DNA of 61,094 nucleotides, counting the filler. It is 4 parts of 4 records of this genome, joined end to end, with 100 filler letters (N's around TTAATTAATTAA, not from the genome) between each part and the next. Parts side by side here need not be neighbours in the genome. Positions count along the whole stretch, not along the records: positions 42,234 to 50,740 come from DRR723986_6731; 3 more parts are not named here. One strand, given 5' to 3'. Shown here in pieces: positions 912-50,840 of the stretch. The notes beneath the pieces were generated by a model. The model had not been told where the DNA came from. It did not search any database and saw only the letters and a program-made list of their open reading frames with translations. The number at the start of each line of letters is the position of its first letter. Within the stretch, counting starts at the first letter, position 1. The position numbers and the translations under genes are program-made.

Positions 912-1472
912 ATGAAAACAGCACAAGAAGTCCGCCTAGGCAACGTGGTAATGGTTGGTAAAGACCCCATGGTGGTTTTGAAGACCGAATACAACAAATC
1001 AGGCCGCAATGCCGCAGTTGTAAAAATGAAAATGAAAAACCTGCTGACCGGCGCAGGAATGGAAAGCGTGTACAAGGCAGACGAAAAGTTCGAACTGTTG
1101 GTTCTTGAACGCAAAGAGGTGACTTATTCCTACTTCGCAGACCCAATGTACGTTTTCATGGATGCGGATTACAACCAGTATGAAGTGGAAGCCGAGAACA
1201 TGGGCGACGCCCTGAACTATCTGGACGATGGAATGGAGTGTGAGGTTGTGTTCTATGACGGCAAGGCACTGTCTGTGGAATTACCGACAAGCTTGGTGCG
1301 TGAAGTTGAATACACGGAACCAGCTGTACGTGGCGATACTTCTGGCAAAATCATGAAGGCCGCACGTATCAAGCCCACCAGCTTTGAAATTCAGGTGCCC
1401 GCTTTCGTTGAAATTGGCGACAAGATTGAAATCGACACACGCACCGCAGAATATCGCAACCGCGTGAAGTAA
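912..1472 (+). CDS. efp: Elongation factor P (Arg32, rhamnosylation type)
   Basis: KSGRNAA loop, [18 protein letters not shown] motifs. Confidence 0.98.
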
Positions 1473-1497
1473 ATCATTCAATACAAAGTGGACTAGC

Positions 1498-1527
1498 AGG
1501 GGCCCCATAGGGGCCCTTTGTGTTTTT
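1498..1527 (+). terminator. Putative intrinsic terminator after efp
   Basis: GGGCCCC-ata-GGGGCCC stem followed by TTTGTGTTTTT. Confidence 0.6.
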
Positions 1528-1542
1528 CCAGCTTGAGGTTCT

Positions 1543-2613
1543 ATGCACATCGGGATTGTTTGCAAGGTAATCGATAATTTCGGCGATGCTGGCTTTTCCC
1601 TCCGATTGGCGAAAGCCTTGGCAGAGAGGGGTCATAGCGTCGATTTGTTTCACGACGACTCAGCCACTTTTCGGGCTTTGTATCCGACCCCAGACAACGG
1701 CAACCTCAAGCTAATCGATGCAATCAAGACCAACATCGAAACCGAGGGTCTACAAAAGCCAGATTTGATTCTGGAACCATTCGGGACTTCAAGTGAGCAA
1801 ACCGCGTACCGCTTCGACTTGGTTCTGAAACGCCAGTTTCCCAAGACACCCTGGTTACTGATTGACTACCTCTCTTCTGAAAAATGGATTGAAAGCTTTC
1901 ACTTAAGCAATTCTATTGACCCCAATACAGGTCATGTCACTACTTTTTTTTACCCCGGCTTTACCGAGCAAACGGGTGGGTTGATTCATTGCGACTACCC
2001 CAGGCACCTGGCTGGAAAACGATTGTTAACAAGCAAGACATGCCTTCGAGTTTTTGTTTTTGCCTATCCGAACGCACCCATCAGAGGCCTGATAAACACC
2101 TGTAATTCTTTAAATTCTCAGGGAAACGAAATAAGCATTGGACTTGCCGGGAATTCTTTAACGCTTGAGCCGGACGACTGCGCCAGCGCTATTCCATTTG
2201 TTGCACAAAGTGAGTTCGATAAATTGCTGGCGCAATATGACATGCTGTTTGTGCGAGGAGAAGACTCGTTCGTGAGAGCACAACTGGCCGGAAAACCATT
2301 CATCTGGCAAATCTACCCGACCGAAGACAATGCACATTTTGAGAAACTTGCGTGTTTTTTTGATCTGTACGCCAATGGGCTTGGCGCGGATTGCAAGTTA
2401 GCGCTTTGGAACAGCTGGCTGGCATGGAATGGCGTGAATACTCACGGCGATTTTGGAATGATCTGGATGGCACTCTTGCCACATTTGCCCGAATTGGACG
2501 TTCATGCGATGAAGTGGCAATCCCGAATTCTCAATGGGAAAGAACTTGTAAAGGAAGTTCTTACATGGCACGGTTCACAGACTCTTACTTTGAAGGAAAA
2601 GCCTGATTTATAA
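1543..2613 (+). CDS. earP: EF-P arginine rhamnosyltransferase EarP
   Basis: CKVIDNFGDAG, FFYPGFTEQTGGL, FVRGEDSFVRAQLAGKPFIWQIYP; adjacent to Arg-type efp. Confidence 0.93.
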   Translation: MHIGIVCKVIDNFGDAGFSLRLAKALAERGHSVDLFHDDSATFRALYPTPDNGNLKLIDAIKTNIETEGLQKPDLILEPFGTSSEQTAYRFDLVLKRQFPKTPWLLIDYLSSEKWIESFHLSNSIDPNTGHVTTFFYPGFTEQTGGLIHCDYPRHLAGKRLLTSKTCLRVFVFAYPNAPIRGLINTCNSLNSQGNEISIGLAGNSLTLEPDDCASAIPFVAQSEFDKLLAQYDMLFVRGEDSFVRAQLAGKPFIWQIYPTEDNAHFEKLACFFDLYANGLGADCKLALWNSWLAWNGVNTHGDFGMIWMALLPHLPELDVHAMKWQSRILNGKELVKEVLTWHGSQTLTLKEKPDL

Positions 2614-2684
2614 GGCTTTTCTCAACAAAACAAATATCAAGAAAGGACAGAAACTGAATTCAAGTTCAACGCTTGGATTCTGCA

Positions 2685-3344
2685 ATGCTGTCATTTCTGC
2701 TCTCACTAGGTCTGGGTTTTGGCTCAATCAACCTGACACAACTGCCTGCGCACCAAGTTGAAAAAATTGCCAAGGAAGTTTTGGTTGAACTGGGTGCAGA
2801 AATGCGAACCAAACCCTCGCTCATTGTGACCGAACGTCCCGAGCCCACACCATTGGGCGCCTTGGCTTATGCCAATGGAAAATGCGTGGTCATCGTGAAT
2901 ACGAATGAGGCGGCCTGGGCGCAGTGGGGACGATTCTTGAATGATCAAAATCGCGCACATTGGCCTCAAATTATCGCAGCCTCCGTGGCGCACGAAATGG
3001 GTCACTGTTTCAGAGAAAGCCGTTCATTCGTGGCTAACTACGAGGTGAATGAGGACGAGTTCAGAGGGATTCAAAACACGGGAAGTTTTGGTCCAAAGCC
3101 AGAGATGGTTTACAAACAGGAACTGTTTGCCGACACGGTTGCAATTCTGTACGCAAAAGAAAACGCCGGGAATGATGCCCATCATGTAATCGAGTCGATG
3201 ATCCAGGCGCGGGAGAAGTTCAGCGCCAATGACCCGACCCATAACACTTCAAAGGTACTGAACCGACTAATTGCCAAGGACACATCGCGTCAAGGCGATG
3301 AAACTTTGGGTTCAACAGCCACACGTTTGCTATCCGGGCTGTAA
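2685..3344 (+). CDS. Hypothetical exported protein with HExxH zincin motif
   Basis: Hydrophobic N-terminus, VAHEMGHC and downstream ELFAD; ATG at 2685 preferred to TTG at 2673. Confidence 0.6.
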   Translation: MLSFLLSLGLGFGSINLTQLPAHQVEKIAKEVLVELGAEMRTKPSLIVTERPEPTPLGALAYANGKCVVIVNTNEAAWAQWGRFLNDQNRAHWPQIIAASVAHEMGHCFRESRSFVANYEVNEDEFRGIQNTGSFGPKPEMVYKQELFADTVAILYAKENAGNDAHHVIESMIQAREKFSANDPTHNTSKVLNRLIAKDTSRQGDETLGSTATRLLSGL

Positions 3345-3357
3345 GGGCGACAAACCC

Positions 3358-4254
3358 CTATTTGGCGCGCGGAAAGGCGTTGTCATAGACGCTGGATAGA
3401 TGATCGAAATCAAGTGCGGTGTAGACCTGTGTGGATGCGATGGACGCATGCCCCAACAGTTCCTGAACGGCTCGCAAGTTCTGCGTGCCTTGCAATAAAT
3501 GACTCCCAAATGAGTGACGCAACATGTGGGGATGCAAATGCTGTCCCAAACCGCATTTTGAGGCATGCTCGGCGATATCCCGTTGAGCTTGCCTGACCGT
3601 CAATGCCAACCCTTTGGCCGATACGAACAAAGCGGTTTCTTGCCCTTTTCCATGCTTAAGCAGGTGACTCTGACGGGGCTCTGCGAATTCTCTGAGGCGG
3701 AATTGCAACGCATCTACGACAGGCACAATTCGGGCCTTGCGCCCCTTGCCTACGACCCTCAATTCTGTCGATCCATTCAAGGCCTCTGCTTGAAGAGTCA
3801 ATGCCTCACTGATTCGAAGACCGGTGCAATACAGCAGTTCAATAAGGACATGCGCCTGAGCGAAGCGAAACTCTTGCGGAAGTGGTTTGGCAAGCAAGGC
3901 AGCCAAAGAGTCAACCCCTACTGCTTTGGGTAAAGATCTTGGAAGTTTGGGAGTTTTGAGGCCCAGGGTGGGATCTACCTCGACAATGCCGTTGTTTAGC
4001 AGATATTTAAAGAATCCTCTCCAGCTTGATGCCAAACGCGCCAAGCTGGCGGGCGCAGCGCCGTTTGCATGGCGTTGCGCAAGGATTGATTTCAGTGTTG
4101 TGCCGGTGACCTGTCCCGGCGGCGTATCAATCAATGAAAGGTCACGCTGCGCCGCCATGACGGTGTTATTGCTGTGACGACACTCAAAGCGCAGGTAATC
4201 CAGATATCGCTGAATCAGGAGTGAGTGTTCTGGAGTCTGCTCAGCGCTGCGCAT
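3358..4254 (-). CDS. xerC: Tyrosine recombinase XerC
   Basis: TGLRISE, GKGRK, HPHMLRHSFGSH, LLGHASIASTQVY; dapF-DUF484-xerC synteny; start uncertain (40-nt overlap with upstream gene). Confidence 0.92.
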   Translation of the reverse strand: MRSAEQTPEHSLLIQRYLDYLRFECRHSNNTVMAAQRDLSLIDTPPGQVTGTTLKSILAQRHANGAAPASLARLASSWRGFFKYLLNNGIVEVDPTLGLKTPKLPRSLPKAVGVDSLAALLAKPLPQEFRFAQAHVLIELLYCTGLRISEALTLQAEALNGSTELRVVGKGRKARIVPVVDALQFRLREFAEPRQSHLLKHGKGQETALFVSAKGLALTVRQAQRDIAEHASKCGLGQHLHPHMLRHSFGSHLLQGTQNLRAVQELLGHASIASTQVYTALDFDHLSSVYDNAFPRAK

Positions 4255-8861: not shown

Positions 8862-8942
8862 CAGAAAATACAGGCAGATCAGGAAAGTGCCAGCATGAAT
8901 ACTGCTTGGCCTTCCTGAGTCAACCCTGTTACAATTTAAGAC

Positions 8943-9018
8943 GTTCGAGGAGCGTTGCGACACACCCATGCTTTTTTGGGGTGCTAGGCTCGAACAAGAA
9001 ATAAACAACGGCGCTCAC
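8943..9018 (+). promoter_or_regulatory. SAH riboswitch
   Basis: GTTCGAGGAGCGTTGCGAC...AGGCTCGAAC...AACGGCGCTCAC fits the SAH riboswitch pattern; directly before ahcY; TACAAT -10 at 8930-8935. Confidence 0.92.
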
Positions 9019-9054
9019 GCTTCTTTCTTTATGAACTTTAAAAAGGAGGGCGTG

Positions 9055-18263: not shown

Positions 18264-18363
18264 NNNNNNNNNNNNNNNNNNNNNNNNNNNNNNNNNNNNN
18301 NNNNNNNTTAATTAATTAANNNNNNNNNNNNNNNNNNNNNNNNNNNNNNNNNNNNNNNNNNNN
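18264..18363. other. Artificial contig linker
   Basis: N-run, TTAATTAATTAA (stops in all six frames), N-run; composition shifts across it. Confidence 0.99.
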
Positions 18364-42133: not shown

Positions 42134-42233
42134 NNNNNNNNNNNNNNNNNNNNNNNNNNNNNNNNNNNNNNNNNNNNTTAATTAATTAANNNNNNNNNNN
42201 NNNNNNNNNNNNNNNNNNNNNNNNNNNNNNNNN
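42134..42233. other. Artificial contig linker
   Basis: N-run, TTAATTAATTAA, N-run; sharp rise in GC after it. Confidence 0.99.
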
Positions 42234-42395
42234 CACGATCAGGCTGGACATGCCGTCATGCACCGGCCCCGACAGGAAGATGATCCGCTCCTTCAGCAAG
42301 CGCGAGAAGATGTCATAGGCGCGCTCGCCCCGGCTGGTCTGTTCGACCACCATCGGAACCAGCGTGTTCATGTAAACGTCATATGGGTCTTTCAT
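42234..42395 (-). CDS. clpP: ATP-dependent Clp protease proteolytic subunit, 5' part
   Basis: [30 protein letters not shown]. Confidence 0.95.
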
Positions 42396-42532
42396 CGGGC
42401 CTGCCTCAGGTAAGGGTACATGCTTTGAAGGGGAGGTTATGGCCGCCCCATGGGGACTGCAAGGGGGGCTGGACCATGAAATAACCCCCGATCGGCGCGT
42501 TTCAATCCCGCCAACGGGTCGTTGCCGGGTCG

Positions 42533-44848
42533 TTACCGGCTGGCCAGCCACATCGTAGCCCCCCACCGGGGCAGAAGAACCATATCGTCACAGGGGTCCA
42601 GCGCCGTCAGATCATCCGATGCACCGGCCACATCCCGGACGCCGTTTTCGAACGGCAACAGGCGGCAGGCGGTCTGGAACAGGTCGCCGGTCAGCGGTTG
42701 GATCGCCCAGACCCTCTGTTCGCCATTGCTGTCCCAGGAAATGATGTGATCGCCCGAGGGCGTGAAGTCAGCGGCCACATAAGTGACCAACCCGTCGCGG
42801 GCATGGGCGAAGGTGTAAAGCGGCAATCCGGTCTGCGCATCCCAGACATAGACCTGCCCGTCATCGGCCCCCGTGACCAGCAACCGCTCATCGGGGCTGA
42901 GCGCCATGGAGGTGACGAACCCGTCATGTGCCAGCCGCTCATTGTAGAAGGGCGGCGCGTCCTCTGCCACATGGCTCAGGCGCAGCACGTCGGGCTGATT
43001 TGGCAGGATGCTGATGCGAAGACCTGTCGCCGCCAGTTCCATCGCAGCCGCATTGCGCCCGGCATCCGATGTCGAGACGACCGCCTCGGTCATCGCGTCC
43101 GAGATCGCAGGCACCGAATGGCCGGTCGAAACGTCAAAAAACCGCATGACCCCGGCAGCGTCATGGGTCATCACCGCATTACCCGTCGGCGAGAAATGCA
43201 CCGTATGGACCGGGCTGCGGTGGCCCAGAAGGGTGATCAGGCTTTTGCCGGTCGGCACGTCATGGATGCGCGCCCGGTTGTCAGAGGCCCCGACCGCCAA
43301 CCGCAAGCCATCCGGCGACAGGCCGATCCCCAGGATGTCGACCCCATCGAGATAGAGGGCACTTGGCGGCAATATCGCGTCGAACGTCGTCAGATCCCAA
43401 ACCCCGGCGATATTGCCAGTGGTTGCGGCGACGGTGCTGCCATCGGCAGAGACATCCATCGCCTCGACCGGGCCCGGCATCCGCAGCCGGTGGATCAGCC
43501 CCATGGCCCGCCCGTTCAGCGCCGGGACAAGGTCGATCACCCGCACTTCATCGCCGACCGTGGCGATCAGACGGGCGCTGCCGGGCACAAACGCCAGGAA
43601 CGTCACGCCCTCGCCAAGATTGAGCGTGGGGCGCAGGGAACGGCCAGACACCAGTGAATGAAAATGCAGCTCATTTGCTTCGGTCGCCACGACCAGCGTG
43701 TCGCCGCCGGGTGACAGCGCCGCCGAAAGAACCCCGTCGCTGCTCTGAAAGGGCAGGCCGTCAACGGCGCCCTCGCGCGGGTTCCAGACAGTCACCCGGC
43801 TGTCGCGGATCAGCAGAAAGCGCCCCCTGTCATAGAGGATATGCGGGGCACTGTCGGAACTGGGCATGGCAAGCTCGCCCTCGATAACCGCGCCGGTTTC
43901 AGGGTCGAACACCGCGCCGGAACCGTCGGTTGCCACGGTCACGACATGGCCCGAGCCCGGCAGGAACTCGACAAAATGGGCCGGCGCATCCGGCAAGGTC
44001 ACCGTCGCGCGAAGACGCTGACCCTGAATGGTCTGGCCAAGCGTTTCCAGCACCTCCAGCCAGGCGTCGGAGGCACGGCACAAGCTGAAATCGACCAGCG
44101 GCAGGATATTCTGGATCGCCCGCACCGGATCCAGCGTCTGCGCCTCGCGGGCCCGGGTCCGCAGCTCTTCGCATTGCTGGTTGCTGACCCAGAAGAACCC
44201 GCCGACCAAGGCCGCGCAGATGGTGAGGGTAGTGGCCACGGCGCTGCCGATCTGGAACCATTTCCGTCGGGACATGCCGGCCTTGAAATAGCGCCAGTGG
44301 TCGCGCGTCGGCCCCGGCGCGCCGCGCGGATGGCGTTCGATCCAGCGGCGCATGGCGCGCAGTTCCGCACCGCGCGGCGGGGCCCCTACCCCGCCGAGGA
44401 ACCGCGCCGCCTGTTCGCCAAAGCGTGTATGATCACGGATCCATTCGATATCCCGGTCGAGCGCGGTGTCCAGCCGTTCAATCGCCTGCGACCATTCCCC
44501 GTCCTCGCCATAGAACCGCAGATAGTTGATTTCCCGGATTTCGGGCGGCAGATCTGGGCCCACATCCTCGAAGGCGGCGGGGACGATGCGTTTGTTCAGT
44601 TCCAGAGCGAACTGCATTTCCATCCGGCAGGCGGGCGACGTGATCCAGTTCGGCCCCAGAACCAGCACCACCACATCCGAGCCCTGCATCATGTCGCGGA
44701 TGCGGGCGGTGATCAGCTCGGTTTCCAGAATACCTTCGCGGTCGATGAAAACCTCGTGCCCGCGCGCGCGCAGTTCATCCCACAGGAAATCTGCCCGATC
44801 CCTGTCCTTGTGAGAATAGGAGATGAAGATTCGCGAACGTTGGGTCAT
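42533..44848 (-). CDS. TIR domain - transmembrane helix - WD40 repeat protein
   Basis: [21 protein letters not shown] (catalytic Glu position); hydrophobic [25 protein letters not shown]; repeats such as [15 protein letters not shown] and [30 protein letters not shown]. Confidence 0.9.
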
Positions 44849-45049
44849 GTCAGGCCATCAAGCCCTGCCGAAGCTGAAAAATCCACCCCTGCCGGGTTGC
44901 GGATCTGCCCTGATTCTGGGCGAAAAGCTGCGTTTCCGAGACCTGTACCGGACAGGCATGGGGGCTTACCCCTTCCGAGATTATAAAATATTCCGTTCAT
45001 TTTCAACACGTTGTCCATGGCAGGGCCAGAAAATGCCCCGGAAGGTAAT

Positions 45050-45094
45050 TTAGTGTGTTTACAACACATATTGTAAGTGTCATAACGACAATAC
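45050..45094. promoter_or_regulatory. Tandem NrtR-type operators overlapping a sigma70-like promoter
   Basis: GTGT-gtttaca-ACAC (45053-45067) and TGTC-ataac-GACA (45078-45090), both GT-N7-AC; TTTACA-N17-CATAAC on + strand. Confidence 0.7.
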
Positions 45095-45275
45095 GAACTG
45101 ACACCAAAGATATAACCAGCCATCCCTACCATAAGAAAGACCAGATCAAGACCTTTTCCCCAGACCTTTTTCCTCCCTCCCCTTTCCTCCCCCAAAGACG
45201 ATCCGTCCTATCCCTGTCCCCATGAACTGGATCGTCCGGCCGGCCCCTTCTGTCCCAGGGGGCCGGCCAATTTGC
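45093..45275 (+). ncRNA. Candidate small RNA with C-rich tract and two CUGUCCC-loop hairpins
   Basis: Promoter upstream; CCTCCCTCCCC tract; stems 45197-45236 and 45238-45268; no credible ORF. Confidence 0.5.
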
Positions 45276-45309
45276 TTGACGACACACAGACAGTGTGTGA
45301 CGTTTACAC
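45276..45309 (+). promoter_or_regulatory. Putative nrtR promoter with autoregulatory operator
   Basis: TTGACG at 45276; GTGT-gacgttt-ACAC at 45295-45309. Confidence 0.55.
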
Positions 45310-45376
45310 CATCCAATCAGCCCCGGGACGGGTCGTTATTTGAAAGGGCCGGACAGATACCGGCAAACGGGCAGAC

Positions 45377-46036
45377 ATGAGTTTTACATATGAATATCCG
45401 CATCCCGCGGTCACGGCAGACATCTGTATTTTCTCGATCCGCGAAGGCACCCTCAAGGTGCTGCTGATCCAGCGCCTGATTGACCCGTTCAAGGACAGTT
45501 GGGCCATCCCCGGCGGCTTTATCAAGATGGACGAAGACCTAGTGGTCGGTGCCGCACGTGAACTGGAAGAAGAAACCGGCGTCAAGGACGTGCCGCTGGA
45601 ACAGCTCGGGGCCTATGGCATGCCCGACCGCGACCCGCGCGAACGGGTGATTACCGTGGCCTTCATGGCACTTGTGCCGTCCGACCAGATGGTGCTGGCC
45701 GCCGCCACCGACGCGGCCGACGCGCAGTGGTTCGACATGGACGAACTGCCCCCTCTGGCCTTCGACCATGACAAGATCCTCGCCGACGCCCGCGCGCGCC
45801 TGGCCGACAAGGTGACCAACCGCGTCACCGAAACCGCGAAATCCGCGTTCCAGTTCCTGCCACAGAAATTCACGCTGGCGCAGGCACAGGCGGTGTTCGA
45901 GACCCTGAAGGGCGAACCGCTGGACAAACGCAATTTCCGCAAGTGGATCGCCGCGAACTGGGATCTGATCGACCTGAAGGAAAAGACCTCGGGTGGGCGG
46001 CACCGGCCCGCCGCACTCTATTCCGTCGATTTCTGA
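45377..46036 (+). CDS. nrtR: NrtR-family Nudix-related transcriptional regulator
   Basis: Nudix box G-FIKMD-E-DLVVGAA-RELEEETGV, RDPRER, LAFDH, C-terminal wHTH with DKRNFRK and GGRHRPAALY. Confidence 0.9.
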   Translation: MSFTYEYPHPAVTADICIFSIREGTLKVLLIQRLIDPFKDSWAIPGGFIKMDEDLVVGAARELEEETGVKDVPLEQLGAYGMPDRDPRERVITVAFMALVPSDQMVLAAATDAADAQWFDMDELPPLAFDHDKILADARARLADKVTNRVTETAKSAFQFLPQKFTLAQAQAVFETLKGEPLDKRNFRKWIAANWDLIDLKEKTSGGRHRPAALYSVDF

Positions 46037-46041
46037 AAAAA

Positions 46042-46070
46042 TGGCCCCGGTGCATGCGCGCCGGGGCCGA
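46042..46070. terminator. GC-rich hairpin after nrtR
   Basis: GGCCCCGG...CCGGGGCC with AAAAA upstream. Confidence 0.55.
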
Positions 46071-46163
46071 ATGACGCGCCAGGGCCGGGAGAGGAGCCCT
46101 GCGCGGATCCGCATCAAATGCGAATCTCAGCTACAGGTTTAACAACCGCAGGTTTTACGCACT

Positions 46164-46177
46164 CTGATCTGGATCAA
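46164..46177. promoter_or_regulatory. FNR/Dnr-type box
   Basis: CTGAT-ctgg-ATCAA, one mismatch to TTGAT-N4-ATCAA, about 55 nt before the Rrf2 start. Confidence 0.6.
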
Positions 46178-46229
46178 GGTACGTTTTCCGATTGTGCATA
46201 TGGTCCACGCATCAAAAGGACTATTGCAG

Positions 46230-46673
46230 ATGCGTCTGACCGTCAGAACAAATATCGCCATGCGCGCGCTGATGACCTGCGCGGTGAACCCCGGCAAGAT
46301 CGTCCGCAAGGCCGAGATCGCAGAGGCCACCGGCGCATCTGAGGCGCATTTGGGCGTGGTGATCAACCAGTTGGCACAGACCGGGTTCATTGAAACGATC
46401 CGTGGCCGTCATGGTGGCATCCGCCTGCGCCTGCCCCCCGAGGATATCAGCGTCGGCCGTGTCTTTCGCACCTTCGAGGCCAACACGCCCTTCGCCGAGT
46501 GCTTTTCGGCCCGCGACAATCATTGCCCGATTGCACCTGTCTGCAAGCTGCGCAATTCGCTCAATGCAGCGCTGGAGGCGTTTTATACCTCGCTTGATGC
46601 GGTCAGCCTGAACGATCTGACCTGCAACAATGCCGGGCTCGAACGGCTGCTGTCGCTCGAACCCACCTGCTGA
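46230..46673 (+). CDS. Rrf2 family regulator (NsrR-like, three Cys)
   Basis: MRLTVRTNIAMRAL, RGRHGG, ECF..NHCPIAPVCKL; SD AAAGGA. Confidence 0.9.
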   Translation: MRLTVRTNIAMRALMTCAVNPGKIVRKAEIAEATGASEAHLGVVINQLAQTGFIETIRGRHGGIRLRLPPEDISVGRVFRTFEANTPFAECFSARDNHCPIAPVCKLRNSLNAALEAFYTSLDAVSLNDLTCNNAGLERLLSLEPTC

Positions 46674-48413
46674 TCAGTCCGCCGCCGTCGAGGCGTCTTT
46701 GCCCACCACCGGGCCCAGTTCCATCATCGCAGCGTATTGCGACAGGAAGACCTTACCGGTCAGCTCTTGCAGGAAATGCGCGCGTTTCAGTCGGTCCATG
46801 ACCGGGCCTTTCACCTCGGACAGGTGCAGCGCGATGCCCATGGAGCCCAACCGGTGATTGATCGCCTCCAGCGATTCCAGCGCCGACATGTCGACCTCGT
46901 TCACGGCCGAGAACATCAGGACCACATGTTTGATGCCCTCTGCTCCCACGACCCGGTCGAGGATGTAATCCTCCAGGTATCGTGCATTGGCGAAATAGAG
47001 GCTCTCATCCACGCGCAGCGTCACCATCGCGGGGTTGGTCAGCACCTTGTAGCGGTTGATATTGCGGAAATGCTCGGACCCATCCTGCATCAGCCCGACC
47101 TCTGCGATATGGGGCCGCGAGGTTTTATAGAGATAAAGCGCGATGGACAGAAGTACGCCCGCCGACACGCCAATTTCCACCCCCGCCAGCAAGGTCAGCA
47201 GGATCGTGGCAGCCACGGCGAAGAAATCGGCCTTGGAATAGGCCCAGGTCTTTTTCAGGATCGAGAAATCCACAAGCGACAGCACCGCCACGATGATCGT
47301 TGCCGCCAGCGTCGCCTTGGGCAGAAAGAATATCAGCGGCGTCAGGGCCAGCGCCGCAATTGCCAGACCCACGGCGGTATAGGCCCCCGCAGCGGGCGTT
47401 TCAGCGCCTGCGTCGTAGTTCACGACAGAGCGCGAAAAGCCGCCAGTGACCGGGAAACCACCGGTGAAGGCCGCGCCGATATTGGCGGCACCCAGCCCGA
47501 TCAGTTCCTGATCCGGGTCGATGCGCTGCCGTTTCTTTGCCGCCAGCGTCTGTGCCACGGAAATGGATTCCACGAAGCCGATGACCGAGATCAGCAGCGC
47601 CGGAACTGCAAGGGCGCGGATCAGGTCGAGGTCAAAGGACGGCATGGTCAAAGGCGGCAGGCTTTGCGGCACCTCGCCCACGATCGACACCCCCTGCCCG
47701 TTCAGGCCGAACAGCCAGACAACAGCCGTTGTCACCATGACAGCGGCCACCGGCCCGGCCTTCGCGGCAACATCTGCCATCGCCGGGGACAGGCCCAGTT
47801 TGCGCAACGCAGGCTTCAGCCCCTTGCGCACCCAGAACAGAAACGCCGTGGCCGTGACGCCGATAACAAGCGTGTAAAGGTTCGTCTCGGGCAGGTGATG
47901 CCACAGCGATTCCACCAGTTCCAACAGGTTGTGCCCGCCTGCCTGCACGCCCAGAATGTGCTTTAGCTGGCTGGCTGCAATGATCACGCCCGATGCGGTG
48001 ATGAAGCCCGCAATCACCGGGTGCGACAGGAAATTCGCCAGAAAGCCAAGCCGGAACACCCCCATGGCCAGAAGGATCGCACCGGAAAGCCCCGCCAGCG
48101 TCAGGGCGGCAATGGCATAGCCCGCCGTCCCAGCCTCGGCGATCTGGCCGATAGAGGCCGCCGTCATCAGCGACACCACGGCAACCGGCCCCACGGCCAG
48201 CGCGCGGGACGTGCCGAAAATGGCATAGAGGATGATCGGCGCGATCGAAGCGTAGAGCCCCATTTCGGGCGGCAAGCCCGCCAGCAGAGCGTAGGCCAGT
48301 GACTGCGGGATCAGCATGATCGTGACGATCACGGCGGCGATCAGGTCGTTCGACAGGGCCTGCTTGTTGTAGGTCCGGCCCCAGTCGAGAATGGGCAGAT
48401 AGCGGGCGAGCAT
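46674..48413 (-). CDS. SulP family anion transporter with STAS domain
   Basis: IPQSLAYALLAGLPP, GGFSRS, LYFANA, LSEVKGPVMD. Confidence 0.95.
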   Translation of the reverse strand: MLARYLPILDWGRTYNKQALSNDLIAAVIVTIMLIPQSLAYALLAGLPPEMGLYASIAPIILYAIFGTSRALAVGPVAVVSLMTAASIGQIAEAGTAGYAIAALTLAGLSGAILLAMGVFRLGFLANFLSHPVIAGFITASGVIIAASQLKHILGVQAGGHNLLELVESLWHHLPETNLYTLVIGVTATAFLFWVRKGLKPALRKLGLSPAMADVAAKAGPVAAVMVTTAVVWLFGLNGQGVSIVGEVPQSLPPLTMPSFDLDLIRALAVPALLISVIGFVESISVAQTLAAKKRQRIDPDQELIGLGAANIGAAFTGGFPVTGGFSRSVVNYDAGAETPAAGAYTAVGLAIAALALTPLIFFLPKATLAATIIVAVLSLVDFSILKKTWAYSKADFFAVAATILLTLLAGVEIGVSAGVLLSIALYLYKTSRPHIAEVGLMQDGSEHFRNINRYKVLTNPAMVTLRVDESLYFANARYLEDYILDRVVGAEGIKHVVLMFSAVNEVDMSALESLEAINHRLGSMGIALHLSEVKGPVMDRLKRAHFLQELTGKVFLSQYAAMMELGPVVGKDASTAAD

Positions 48414-48445
48414 GGCTCACACCTTTCGAGACAATAGTTTCGTCA

Positions 48446-48497
48446 GGATCGCGGAGCGCAGCTCCGCGATCCGGTCGCGACCCTGCGGGTCGCGATC
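48446..48497. repeat. Paired REP-like palindromes
   Basis: GGATCGCGGAGC-gca-GCTCCGCGATCC followed immediately by GGTCGCGACCC-tgc-GGGTCGCGATC. Confidence 0.75.
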
Positions 48498-48523
48498 CTT
48501 GGGATCATAGGCGGGTCAGAGGA

Positions 48524-50197
48524 TCAGCCGGCGCTGACCTTCTCGGGTTTCACCATCCATTCACGGCCACGCAACATGGCCTTCCAGTAAACGGGTGGCA
48601 GCAGTTTTTCCTTCAGGAACCACGACAGGCCCGACGGTTTCGTGCCGTCTATCAGCCATTTCGGGAACGAGGGCAGCAGCGCCCCGCCATAGCCGAACTC
48701 CGCCAGAACGATCTTGCCGCGTTCCACCGTCAGCGGGCAGGAGCCATAACCATTATAGATCATCGACGGCGACTTCCCGTCGATATCATCGGCAAGGTTC
48801 TGTGCCACGATGGGAGCCTGCATCCGCGCCGCCGCCGCCGTCTTGGCATTGGGGGCGTTCATGACGTCACCAAGCGACCAGATGTTGTCATAGGTCTTGT
48901 GGCGCAGCGTCGCCTGATCCACATCGACCCAGCCACCGGCATCGGCCAAAGGCGAGACGCGAATGAAATCGGGCGCGGTCTGCGGCGGGCAGACATGCAT
49001 CATGTCGAACTCGACCGTGACTTCGGTCGGATCGGTATCGGGCTTGGCCACCTTGAACGTGGCCTTTTTCGCCTCGCCATCCACCGAAACCAGATTGTGG
49101 AAGAAGTTCAGGTCGGCATCGTATTTCTCGATGTATTTCTCCAGCGCCGGGACATAGTCCTTGACGCCGAACAGCACCCCGCCCGCATTCATGAACTGAA
49201 TGTCGATATCCTTTAGCGTGCCATTGCGGAACCAGTGATCGCCTGACAGATACAGCGCCTTTTGCGGGGCACCGGCGCATTTGATCGGCATCGGCGGCTG
49301 CGTGAACAGCGCCCGGCCTTCCTTGAGACCCTGAACAAGCTCCCACGTGTAGGGTGCCAGATCGTAGCGATAGTTCGAGGTCACGCCGTTCTTGCCGAGC
49401 GTTTCCACCAGACCGTCAACCTTGTGCCAGTCGAGCTTGATGCCCGGACAGACGACAAGCCGCTTGTAGCCCACGACCCGACAGCCATCGAGGATGACAA
49501 CGTTGTCCTTGGGCTCAAACGCCGCGACGGCGGACTTGATCCAGTGGACGCCCTTGGGGATCAGGCTGCCCATGGTCTTGGCAGTGTCGGCCGCGTCAAA
49601 GATACCGCCGCCCACCATCGTCCAGCCGGGCTGGTAATAGTGAATGTCGGCGGGGTCGATGATGGCGATCTCCAGATCCGGCTTGCGCGATTTCAGCGAC
49701 GAGGCGGTCGAGATCCCCGCCGCACCGCCACCCACGATCACCACGTCATAGCTGGCATCGGCCCGATCCGTGGGCGTCTTGCCACCATTGACGATGCGGC
49801 GAACAACGCCCGCCATGTCATAGCCCGCCGCCTTGGTCGAGGCGAGGATGTCAGAGACCGGCAGCGTATCGGCCTGGCTGAGCGACCAGAGCGTCGCGCA
49901 GCGCGTGCCGGTCCGGCAATAGGCGAAAACGGGCTTCGGCAGCTCATCCATCGCTTTACCGAAGGCCTCGGAATCTTCGTCCGTCACCCGGCCCGACACC
50001 ACGGGCAGATAGCGAAATTCGAGACCTGCCGCCTTGGCCGCCGCTTCGATCTCATCACTCGTGGGCTGATCGGCCCCTTCGCCGTCAGGCCGGTTGCAGA
50101 TCACCGAACGAAAGCCCTGATCCGCAACGCGGCGCATTTCTTCCGCCGTGACCTGCGGACTGACCGAGATCGTGGCGTTGATGGTCTTGATTTCCAT
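48524..50197 (-). CDS. sqr: DUF442/TIGR01244 sulfurtransferase fused to type II sulfide:quinone oxidoreductase
   Basis: ICNRPDGE, YCRTGTR; then GGGAAG, YQPGWT, KCAGAPQK, YNGYGSCP, LAEF. Confidence 0.92.
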   Translation of the reverse strand: MEIKTINATISVSPQVTAEEMRRVADQGFRSVICNRPDGEGADQPTSDEIEAAAKAAGLEFRYLPVVSGRVTDEDSEAFGKAMDELPKPVFAYCRTGTRCATLWSLSQADTLPVSDILASTKAAGYDMAGVVRRIVNGGKTPTDRADASYDVVIVGGGAAGISTASSLKSRKPDLEIAIIDPADIHYYQPGWTMVGGGIFDAADTAKTMGSLIPKGVHWIKSAVAAFEPKDNVVILDGCRVVGYKRLVVCPGIKLDWHKVDGLVETLGKNGVTSNYRYDLAPYTWELVQGLKEGRALFTQPPMPIKCAGAPQKALYLSGDHWFRNGTLKDIDIQFMNAGGVLFGVKDYVPALEKYIEKYDADLNFFHNLVSVDGEAKKATFKVAKPDTDPTEVTVEFDMMHVCPPQTAPDFIRVSPLADAGGWVDVDQATLRHKTYDNIWSLGDVMNAPNAKTAAAARMQAPIVAQNLADDIDGKSPSMIYNGYGSCPLTVERGKIVLAEFGYGGALLPSFPKWLIDGTKPSGLSWFLKEKLLPPVYWKAMLRGREWMVKPEKVSAG

Positions 50198-50220
50198 GGT
50201 CTTCCCTTCCCTGTCCGGTC

Positions 50221-50740
50221 TTACAATGCGTTGACCGGCACCTTGAGCATCGGGTTGCCGTCCTTGTCGGTCGGAACCGCGCCCGCGCGCATATTCACCT
50301 GCAAGGAGGGGATGATCAGCTTGGGCATGTCAAGCTGTGCGTCACGCTCGGTGCGGAACTTGACGAATTCTTCCTTGGACTTGCCGCCGCCTACATGGAT
50401 GTTATGCGCCTTTTCCTCGCCCACGGTGGTTTCCCACGCGATGTCGCGGCCATTGGGGCCGTAGTCATGGCACATGAACAGACGCATGTCATCGGGCAGG
50501 GCCAGAACCTTCTGGATCGAGTCAAAGAGCGTTCCCGCATCACCACCGGGGAAGTCAGCGCGTGCGGACCCGCCATCGGGCATGAACAGGGTGTCGCCCA
50601 CGAAAGCGGCATCGCCCATCACATGCACCATGCAGGCCGGGGTATGGCCGGGGGTATACATGGCGAAGGCCTGCATATTGCCGATCATATAGGTGTCGCC
50701 TTCAACAAAAAGCTTGTCGAACTGGCTGCCGTCGCGCTGG
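50221..50740 (-). CDS. MBL-fold persulfide dioxygenase, 3' part
   Basis: TPGHTPAC, GDTLFMPDGGSARADFPGG, CHDY, PSLQVNMRAG; 5' end cut by linker. Confidence 0.9.
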
Positions 50741-50840
50741 NNNNNNNNNNNNNNNNNNNNNNNNNNNNNNNNNNNNNNNNNNNNTTAATTAATTAANNNN
50801 NNNNNNNNNNNNNNNNNNNNNNNNNNNNNNNNNNNNNNNN
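50741..50840. other. Artificial contig linker
   Basis: N-run, TTAATTAATTAA, N-run. Confidence 0.99.

Follow-up and report, generated by a model that had tools for sequence, protein, structure and literature searches.

A membrane TIR receptor gene paired with an NrtR-type repressor and a predicted secreted-protein regulon in Nioella-like Rhodobacteraceae

The window analyzed here is a stretch of 61,094 nt in which four unrelated contigs (GC of 0.51, 0.39, 0.62 and 0.55) are joined by N-TTAATTAATTAA-N spacers at 18264-18363, 42134-42233 and 50741-50840, so that neighbors across the joints are artefacts. On its 8.5-kb contig, at 42234-50740, we found a gene for a TIR receptor with one predicted transmembrane (TM) segment and a WD40 propeller, together with nrtR, which encodes a repressor of the NrtR family. 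The initial annotation had described the two genes as head-to-head, separated by 528 nt and flanked by clpP and an Rrf2 gene, which gene calls and Pfam bear out. The contig is Nioella-like, since 13 records with Nioella, Alterinioella or Rhodobacteraceae in their titles have proteins that share 86-96% identity with its NrtR. We suggest that the receptor produces ADP-ribose, that ADP-ribose releases NrtR from DNA and that a regulon of secreted proteins is thereby induced, a chain that, read from sequence, we regard as moderately probable.

The pairing of the two genes, found in a group of marine bacteria, is the first line of evidence. In all 13 close loci, clpP, the TIR gene (57-93% identity; in two pieces in locus L010) and nrtR are found in the same order, with Rrf2 present in 12 of them, and these Nioella-type loci are one inherited insertion. 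From 401 Rhodobacteraceae genomes, an NrtR-like match was found in 13 and a close one (64-96%) in 7, while TIR-region matches were found in 11, including all 7 genomes with a close NrtR. In these 7 the TIR gene lies beside nrtR, in two of them across contig breaks. The other 6 NrtRs of the family are distant, three of them being encoded in nrtR-SPFH operons. In genome G349 the receptor shows only 31% identity, and its gene, divergent from nrtR, has unrelated chromosomal surroundings, while G699 has the same gene order split over two contigs that overlap by 127 nt. In G370, a 1016-aa TIR-TM-TPR receptor gene is placed in tandem, followed by nearly the same two NrtR boxes and the start of a secreted "YYCEW" gene; the end of a YYCEW gene and nrtR are on another contig end, with no exact overlap. 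Among the best 80 of 442 metagenome matches, which were those used, 17 belong to the same NrtR clade (at least 62% identity) and 13 of these have a TIR match; from the remaining ones, L221 has a TPR tail and 3 have 205 nt or less upstream. No TIR match was found at the 63 more distant NrtR loci of these best 80, many of which are short. The gene order of G370 is found on one contig in L218, and in L217 the TIR-TPR gene is downstream of nrtR and convergent. The pair is thus not one that rarely co-occurs, the outcome that would have spoken against the initial annotation: it is kept over a TIR identity of 31-93%, with the TIR gene in three placements relative to nrtR (upstream and divergent, upstream in tandem, or downstream and convergent), and with either a WD40 propeller or a TPR array as the sensor.

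TIR-linked NrtRs form one clade with a FastTree support of 1.0, including that of L234, whose upstream side is cut off. The clade also has members in Pararhodobacter, Pelagovum, Roseisalinus, Wenxinia, Primorskyibacter and Psychromarinibacter. WD40-type and TPR-type groups are separated in both the TIR and the NrtR trees, and a single origin for all linked TIRs of both types has a p-AU of 0.38 (approximately unbiased test). In 77 further loci, some with flanks of only 1.5 kb, a TIR match was found only at the G349 locus. Searches in genomes of the order (151) and in relatives of G370 (71) and of G699 (51) revealed no new clade member, and the nearest genome, G001, is without this NrtR.

The receptor gene (42533-44848, minus strand) encodes 771 aa arranged as TIR, helical linker, single predicted TM segment and WD40 beta-propeller, according to Pfam, alignment, hydropathy and an AlphaFold model with mean pLDDT of 83. 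The TIR domain (residues 7-126; 44471-44830, minus strand), a predicted cytoplasmic NADase, matches PF13676 (TIR_2) with an E value of 9e-23, and in 5 of 5 genomes tested the TIR_2 match at the module is the only one in the genome. The predicted TM segment (residues ~199-220; 44189-44254, minus strand) is the single hydrophobic segment of the protein, comes just after an RRKW stretch and reaches a Kyte-Doolittle (KD) peak of 1.91 at residue ~202; in the 12 linked receptors the KD window varies from 1.75 to 2.71. The propeller (residues ~279-715; 42704-44014, minus strand), recognized by Pfam WD40 families, model strands and Foldseek matches to WD40 propellers, is predicted to be periplasmic. 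The TIR would lie inside and the sensor outside, because one hydrophobic helix has basic residues before it and the receptor alignment shows conserved cysteine pairs C-terminal to it.

The TIR retains the FISYS motif, and its putative catalytic glutamate, E77 (codon at 44618-44620, minus strand), is invariant in 12 of 12 alignment rows. E77 aligns to the glutamate of the WCLxE motif in the plant RPP1 TIR, and the position of the plant tryptophan, four residues before the glutamate (E-4), is Ala73 here. This residue is A, T, V or P in the 12 linked TIRs, non-aromatic in every one, and the WxxxE pattern of cyclases is absent. In the Manik preprint (bioRxiv 2022.05.07.491051), every cyclase TIR has an aromatic residue at E-4, and mutation of this position shifts the product towards ADP-ribose and can lower activity. 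Since the catalytic glutamate is kept and the cyclizing tryptophan is lacking, the predicted product is linear ADP-ribose; the cyclic isomers that the initial annotation had also considered are not expected. Presumptive promoter elements of the gene (TGGATTTTT ... GGCTTGAT; 44857-44885, minus strand), recognized as conserved columns, are 71% identical, compared with 41% for the neutral part of the spacer, and are ~170-205 nt from the nearest NrtR box. The genomes G326 and G329 (L153-L160) each contain 3-4 TIR(-TM) proteins of this family but not this NrtR, so receptors of this kind may also serve other outputs.

The repressor gene (45377-46036, plus strand) encodes 219 aa with the architecture of the NrtR family, an N-terminal Nudix domain and a C-terminal NrtR winged helix-turn-helix (wHTH), both above Pfam cut-offs (PF00293, NUDIX; PF21906, NrtR_WHD). 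Its score with NCBIfam NF050029 is 139 against a cut-off of 400, and its best PDB matches are AraR, EF2700 and SoNrtR. For NrtRs, the ligand demonstrated is linear ADP-ribose. Contacts were mapped from an alignment and the residue list in PMC4666351. Residues that contact ADP-ribose are kept: R33 (R41 in SoNrtR), R88 (R98) and Y7 (F15), the R98 position being Gly in the arabinose sensor AraR. Release from DNA by ADP-ribose fits this retention, and the residue-level signs in both proteins agree with ADP-ribose as the link between TIR and NrtR, as had been proposed. The Nudix box (GX5EX7REUXEEXGU, G47-V69; 45515-45583, plus strand) is intact by sequence pattern, as it is in all 18 examined clade members. 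A fusion of NrtR with a TIR was considered and rejected, the longer NrtR relatives having a second Nudix domain in place of a TIR; P0061, P0062, P0065 and P0068 are such relatives, with an extra N-terminal Nudix (Nudix-Nudix-wHTH).

Operator-like sites are conserved in the spacer. The initial annotation reported three GT-N7-AC palindromes, and the bare pattern is near chance, with 5 matches in the spacer and three or more in 439 of 2000 shuffles; what stands are three longer GTGT-N7-ACA[CA] palindromes at 45053, 45077 and 45295, which agree with the published GT-N7-AC core of NrtR (PMC2330246). The predicted box 1 (GTGTGTTTACAACAC; 45053-45067) overlaps a -35-like TTTACA (45058-45063), and box 2 (GTGTCATAACGACAA; 45077-45091), 24 bp after it, overlaps a -10-like CATAAC (45081-45086). 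Together they cover a TTTACA-N17-CATAAC promoter that points to nrtR and away from the TIR gene. This promoter was deduced from conservation, a generic sigma-70 scan of the spacer having found none, and TTTACA-N17-CATA is retained even in relatives with a decayed box 2. Across 7 relatives, box 1 is 83% and box 2 76% identical, compared with the 41% of the neutral spacer, and the spacing of 24 bp is the same in G349, G699, G370, L217, L218 and L221. Box 3, with the lowest position weight matrix (PWM) score of the three (13.0), lies at 45295-45309 beside a TTGAC promoter element of nrtR that is invariant in the spacer alignment (whole region 45276-45309, plus strand). It is a predicted autorepression site, and it fits autoregulation of nrtR, in line with the derepression of nrtR suggested by the initial annotation. 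Across the clade, palindromes with this core are predicted from sequence over promoters, that of nrtR included. Downstream of box 3, the nrtR leader contains a second, moderately conserved stem-loop region (CCCCGGGAC ... GAAAGGGCCGG; 45316-45376), 65% identical in the 7 relatives. In L234 (70-322) another arrangement is observed, where a clade NrtR with three boxes is divergent from a gene starting at the contig edge.

The TIR gene has no NrtR box of its own, so co-regulation fails to explain its permanence beside nrtR. This bears on an alternative that we consider unlikely, in which NrtR runs the secreted regulon and reads bulk ADP-ribose or another sugar-phosphate, the TIR being a functionally related passenger. 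Ligands do vary within the NrtR family, comprising ADP-ribose, NAD and L-arabinose (PMC4666351), and an unrelated toxin that cleaves NAD causes derepression of NrtR targets in P. aeruginosa (PMC11535050). A Sir2/cobB gene adjoins one box, and same-family TIRs occur without NrtR. A passenger, however, would hardly stay linked when its gene is turned around, is moved to the opposite side of nrtR or has its sensor exchanged, in genomes where this TIR_2 match is the sole one (5 of 5).

The predicted output is larger than the locus. The strict pattern WWGTGT-N7-ACACWW occurs 11, 10, 9 and 9 times in G302, G303, G384 and G304 (1, 0, 2 and 2 for reversed-pattern controls), and the other 397 genomes have at most 5 matches (G352, with 6 in its control). 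In each of G349, G699 and G370 one strict match is at the module, being the sole match in G370 and G699. A PWM trained only on boxes of nrtR loci gives scores of 20-29 to many distant sites. We took the surrounding DNA for most of the listed box sites in six genomes, and the sites recur at orthologous places, often before genes for signal-peptide proteins: curlin/CsgH clusters, I78 peptidase inhibitors, PPC-fold clusters, YYCEW peptides, Sel1, META and VHL-beta proteins. By a heuristic call, signal peptides are present in 21 of 46 box-adjacent genes, compared with 19 of 281 unrelated control genes, and a signal-peptide gene is present at 20 of the 34 sites that adjoin a gene start. The labels IalB-like, CBU_0592-like, cysK, xth, adhC, fnrL and cobB are tentative, given by the appearance of the sequences or derived from Pfam matches. 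No box was found at 14 of 14 loci of pncB, nadA and nadE (5, 4 and 5), where the best PWM score is 7.2 against a training minimum of 13.0, so this NrtR is not a canonical regulator of NAD homeostasis. As initially remarked, the 8.5-kb contig has no NAD salvage gene either.

Two kinds of secreted targets reside at the module itself. The promoter under boxes 1 and 2 drives a secreted protein of ~160 aa in L006, L222, G349 and G699. The model of this protein (pLDDT 92) is a PPC-type beta-sandwich with tied structural matches to collagen-binding PPC domains, subtilase C-terminal domains and PliG (Z 9.2-9.8, rmsd ~3, 94-103 aligned residues), and the modelled fold shared by PPC domains and PliG shows no function. 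What this promoter drives at the TPR-type loci is one or two YYCEW peptides, whose ending is likely a disulfide beta-hairpin and for which no Pfam or ESM Atlas family was found. By consecutive accessions, such peptides adjoin clade NrtRs in Pararhodobacter marinus, Pelagovum pacificum, Pararhodobacter sp. and Psychromarinibacter sp. S121. YYCEW genes are also boxed in the WD40-type genome G303, which argues against a strict pairing of sensor and peptide.

Several observations on these families deserve to be registered on their own. Tandem secreted peptides ending in YYCEWVTV..WGNW.TVWQC[YF] are found at L217 (5300-5866), L218 (5329-5873) and L087 (1597-2054), and in Pelagovum pacificum five YYCEW copies flank the NrtR by accession order. 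The PPC-fold secreted family has 9-16 domain copies per genome in G302-G306, including multi-domain repeats, and was not found in 5 NrtR-negative genomes of the family by a search run with no positive control. Minimal curli-like clusters, with curlin repeats alternating with CsgH, are all boxed (L161, L081, L186, L216, Nioella-group). A strong box is conserved in 5 genomes between the 3' ends of uspA and an FnrL-like gene (L122:1501, L171:1534, L179:1541, L191:1503 and L207:1503), ~45-50 nt before a short open reading frame (ORF) starting with MFCTAHH, which may be an unannotated small protein or RNA. In G302 a weaker box (L086:1499-2175) lies ahead of two tandem genes whose ~90-aa products have a twin-arginine-like leader and an acidic tail containing Cys; a gene of 396 aa, cupin/JmjC-like on visual inspection, is divergent from them, and the whole is possibly a modified-peptide cluster.

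An immune module, which would overlap in part with the favored mechanism if the cue were an attacker, is rather improbable as an explanation of the locus. The receptor would then sense phage or predators and deplete NAD+ or make a non-canonical ADP-ribose derivative, the secreted proteins serving as decoys or shields. The TIR does resemble ThsB and other defense TIRs at the domain level, the distribution is patchy (7 of 401 genomes) and the targets include protease inhibitors and proteins whose fold matches that of the lysozyme inhibitor PliG (Z 9.2, level with PPC domains). However, no effector gene of the ThsA type (SIR2-SLOG, TM-Macro, caspase and others) is adjacent, the neighbors being clpP, nrtR, Rrf2 or secreted proteins; the NCBIfam ThcB4 score is 45 against a cut-off of 220; the locus keeps its position throughout Nioella; and the matches in plasmid and viral collections (best identities of 46% and 48%) include no clade member. 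PADLOC, applied to the three core window proteins as had been recommended, gave only matches at the level of the TIR domain. The Thoeris-like, anti-phage role raised initially is thus not what these data suggest.

We give still less credit to a reading in which the chief reason for keeping NrtR is that it hydrolyzes ADP-ribose and so removes a toxic product, like an antitoxin, with transcription as a secondary output. The intact Nudix boxes of the 18 clade members would suit it, since such a box correlates with ADP-ribose pyrophosphatase activity (PMC2330246), but every arrangement retains the tandem operators over the secreted-gene promoter, and Nioella has an expanded regulon. Finally, it is highly improbable that the distant GTGT-N7-ACAC sites belong to another, Nioella-specific regulator and that the module controls only its neighbor: module genomes outside Nioella do have few strict sites and NrtR binding at the sites is a sequence prediction, but the same motif, in agreement with the NrtR core, precedes nrtR in every clade lineage, and both kinds of module-resident targets (PPC-fold and YYCEW) are also boxed at distant Nioella-group loci.

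In the window, the secreted gene is missing. Between box 2 and nrtR there is a pyrimidine-rich leader (45094-45196, plus strand), placed where relatives encode the PPC-fold protein, followed by a conserved double hairpin with (C)UGUCCC loops (45197-45268, plus strand), and neither an ORF nor a protein remnant of the secreted gene was found in this segment. In G699 the double hairpin begins at the stop codon of the secreted gene and in L006 ~40 nt after it; L007 and L223-L226 keep the leader with no coding remnant, and the ribosome-binding site and ATG of the lost gene are still visible in L007, L225 and L226. Because the hairpin follows the secreted gene in G699 and L006 and the leader is kept where the coding region is gone, the segment that the initial annotation called a small RNA (sRNA) reads as the leader and the 3' untranslated region or terminator hairpins left after a deletion. 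Its structured nature, also part of that annotation, is confirmed by the hairpins, 84% and 88% identical over the 7 relatives, compared with 41% in the neutral spacer and 41-63% at four-fold sites of nrtR. On this comparison the segment is still under selection.

The hairpin alignment had been fitted to the model, and in it pairing holds for 96.7% of cells, with compensatory change at 4 of 20 pairs. The covariation score is above those of all 500 shuffles, a control that ignores relatedness, and the single-sequence fold is marginal (z of -2.0). No spacer match reached the Rfam gathering score (best E value of 1.9), and the weak matches to 6C, sX13 and RsmY, below it, were rejected as chance. 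A covariance model of the hairpin found no second copy in 5 genomes and, in 141 genomes of the family, only the two module genomes and two weak terminator-like matches (E values of 6e-4 and 7e-4); the element is therefore neither repeated nor a known sRNA family. In RNA-seq data of two studies (4 of the 19 runs listed), contigs start at 45104-45109, ~10-15 nt past the predicted start, and pass through the hairpins towards or into nrtR, so that the non-coding segment appears to run on into this gene. These starts are a weak hint, since the contigs show neither strand nor ends. RNA-contig cover is little or none over the TIR gene and 44794-45103, and low cover proves nothing. The complement of the sRNA seed lies near 5 of 282 start codons. 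The double-hairpin segment could be an sRNA, a structured nrtR leader or a leaky terminator. The sRNA, which the initial annotation had placed under NrtR control, is probably not the main output of the circuit: the segment is what a deletion left behind, L013 and L227 have lost it, TPR-type loci are without it, and a predicted regulon of secreted proteins makes up the larger output.

Returning to the receptor-to-regulon chain, the genomes themselves show the linkage, the domain content, the operator-like sites and their conservation, the kinds of targets, the loss of a gene and the conservation of the RNA, whereas the topology, the NADase activity, ADP-ribose as ligand, NrtR binding, the reset of the signal and the nature of the cue are inferred. 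We suggest the following course. Some cue in the periplasm, possibly damage to the envelope or a foreign protein, would cluster the receptor, and the clustered TIR would cleave NAD+ to linear ADP-ribose. This would release NrtR from the GTGT-N7-ACAC operators and induce the adjacent secreted protein and, in Nioella, also the dispersed secreted and matrix genes (curlin with CsgH, I78 inhibitors, PPC-fold, Sel1, META and VHL-beta). Since nrtR would be induced too, its intact Nudix site would probably hydrolyze the signal and reset the circuit. In the lineage of the window the secreted gene beside nrtR has been deleted, with promoter, leader and 3' hairpins remaining under selection.

Several points weigh against this chain. 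Independent evidence comes from about 4-5 lineages, because the Nioella loci are one insertion and the genomes are related. Same-family TIRs are found without this NrtR in 4 of the 11 TIR-positive genomes. In L010 the TIR gene aligns in two frames (1302-3630) that change near residue 180, either by a frameshift or by an error in the assembly of this metagenome-assembled genome. TM hydrophobicity is only moderate in some rows (KD 1.75-1.9), and loss of the aromatic residue at E-4 can also mean low TIR activity. The solved structure nearest in sequence to the repressor is AraR, the arabinose sensor, and the Nudix box is also intact in 16 of 22 NrtRs outside the clade. The expanded regulon is found in the Nioella group only, with 2, 1 and 1 strict sites in G349, G699 and G370. 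The enrichment in signal peptides is smaller against a second control, other genes in the same loci (37 of 189), and the call is a heuristic of our own that counts orthologues more than once. Boxes also adjoin genes whose products are not secreted, among them cysK, xth and adhC, one for a small membrane protein and, near fnrL, a short ORF; several of these exceptions are the divergent partner of a secreted gene.

Beyond this locus, it is about as easy to believe as to doubt that these modules form a Toll-like class, a proposal that again comes from sequence. Such a class would combine TM TIR receptors having interchangeable periplasmic sensors, linear ADP-ribose as a dedicated second messenger, a Nudix repressor that resets itself and a non-lethal secreted programme of envelope protection and amyloid matrix; in Nioella the module would have become a genome-wide regulator, with a non-coding RNA outliving its host gene. 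In the papers searched, bacterial TIR systems act through an effector that stops growth or kills the cell, and NrtR regulators are known as sensors of metabolism. If the proposal is true, ADP-ribose would be a genuine second messenger with a transmembrane input and a transcriptional output, and part of the large, unexplained family of TIR-TM-repeat proteins would receive its first function.

Outside the module, positions 46230-50688 of the contig contain the Rrf2 regulator and then a convergent cluster for sulfide oxidation (persulfide dioxygenase, Blh-SQR fusion and SulP), which varies among relatives. On another of the joined contigs, an S-adenosylhomocysteine (SAH) riboswitch (RF01057) is found at 8941-9023 (plus strand).

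All parts of the module belong to known families, and what our literature search did not turn up is the wiring and the regulon. No description of a TIR receptor coupled to NrtR was found in full-text literature, with RegPrecise, subscription journals and supplements outside the search; the pair could sit in supplementary neighborhood tables of comparative papers. With NrtR repressors as described in PMC2330246, and with SoNrtR and BtAraR, the window protein shares the Nudix and wHTH domains, the GT-N7-AC core, operators that overlap promoters, autoregulation and the ADP-ribose contacts. Unlike these, it has no boxes at NAD or pentose genes, and it combines secreted targets, an intact Nudix box and the link to a TIR receptor; Table 1 of PMC2330246 includes neither an alphaproteobacterial group nor a TIR partner. 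Thoeris systems, types V-XI included (bioRxiv 10.64898/2025.12.03.692087), also have a TIR predicted to make an NAD-derived signal for a neighboring reader, and their catalytic glutamate has a putative counterpart here in the invariant E77. In the present module, by contrast, a membrane anchor and an outside sensor are joined to the TIR, the signal is read by a transcription factor and not by a killing effector, and the predicted signal is linear ADP-ribose; the main text of 10.64898/2025.12.03.692087 does not contain the words "transcription", "Nudix" or "regulator". Nudix-HTH regulators proposed to sense ADP-ribose are known from ADP-ribose-linked conflict neighborhoods (PMC9503650), which centre on ADP-ribosylglycohydrolases countering viral ADP-ribosylation, and the account given there of these neighborhoods names no TIR receptor or secreted regulon.

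Two signaling systems come closer in their general layout. The Sinorhizobium cyclases CyaD1, CyaD2 and CyaK are membrane receptors. Their cascade through cAMP to Clr (PMC10463352) likewise joins, in an alphaproteobacterium, an enzyme for a nucleotide signal, a ligand-controlled factor and a dispersed regulon; here, instead, we would have a TIR in place of an adenylate cyclase, ADP-ribose in place of cAMP and a Nudix repressor in place of a Crp-type activator. The other layout belongs to animals, and the likeness is an analogy and not a homology of systems. Toll-like receptors have an outside repeat sensor, a single TM segment, a cytoplasmic TIR and a transcriptional output. In comparison with them, the receptors described here have the TIR at the N-terminus, in the opposite orientation, WD40 or TPR repeats in place of leucine-rich repeats, and a TIR that would be enzymatic and relay its signal by a small molecule.

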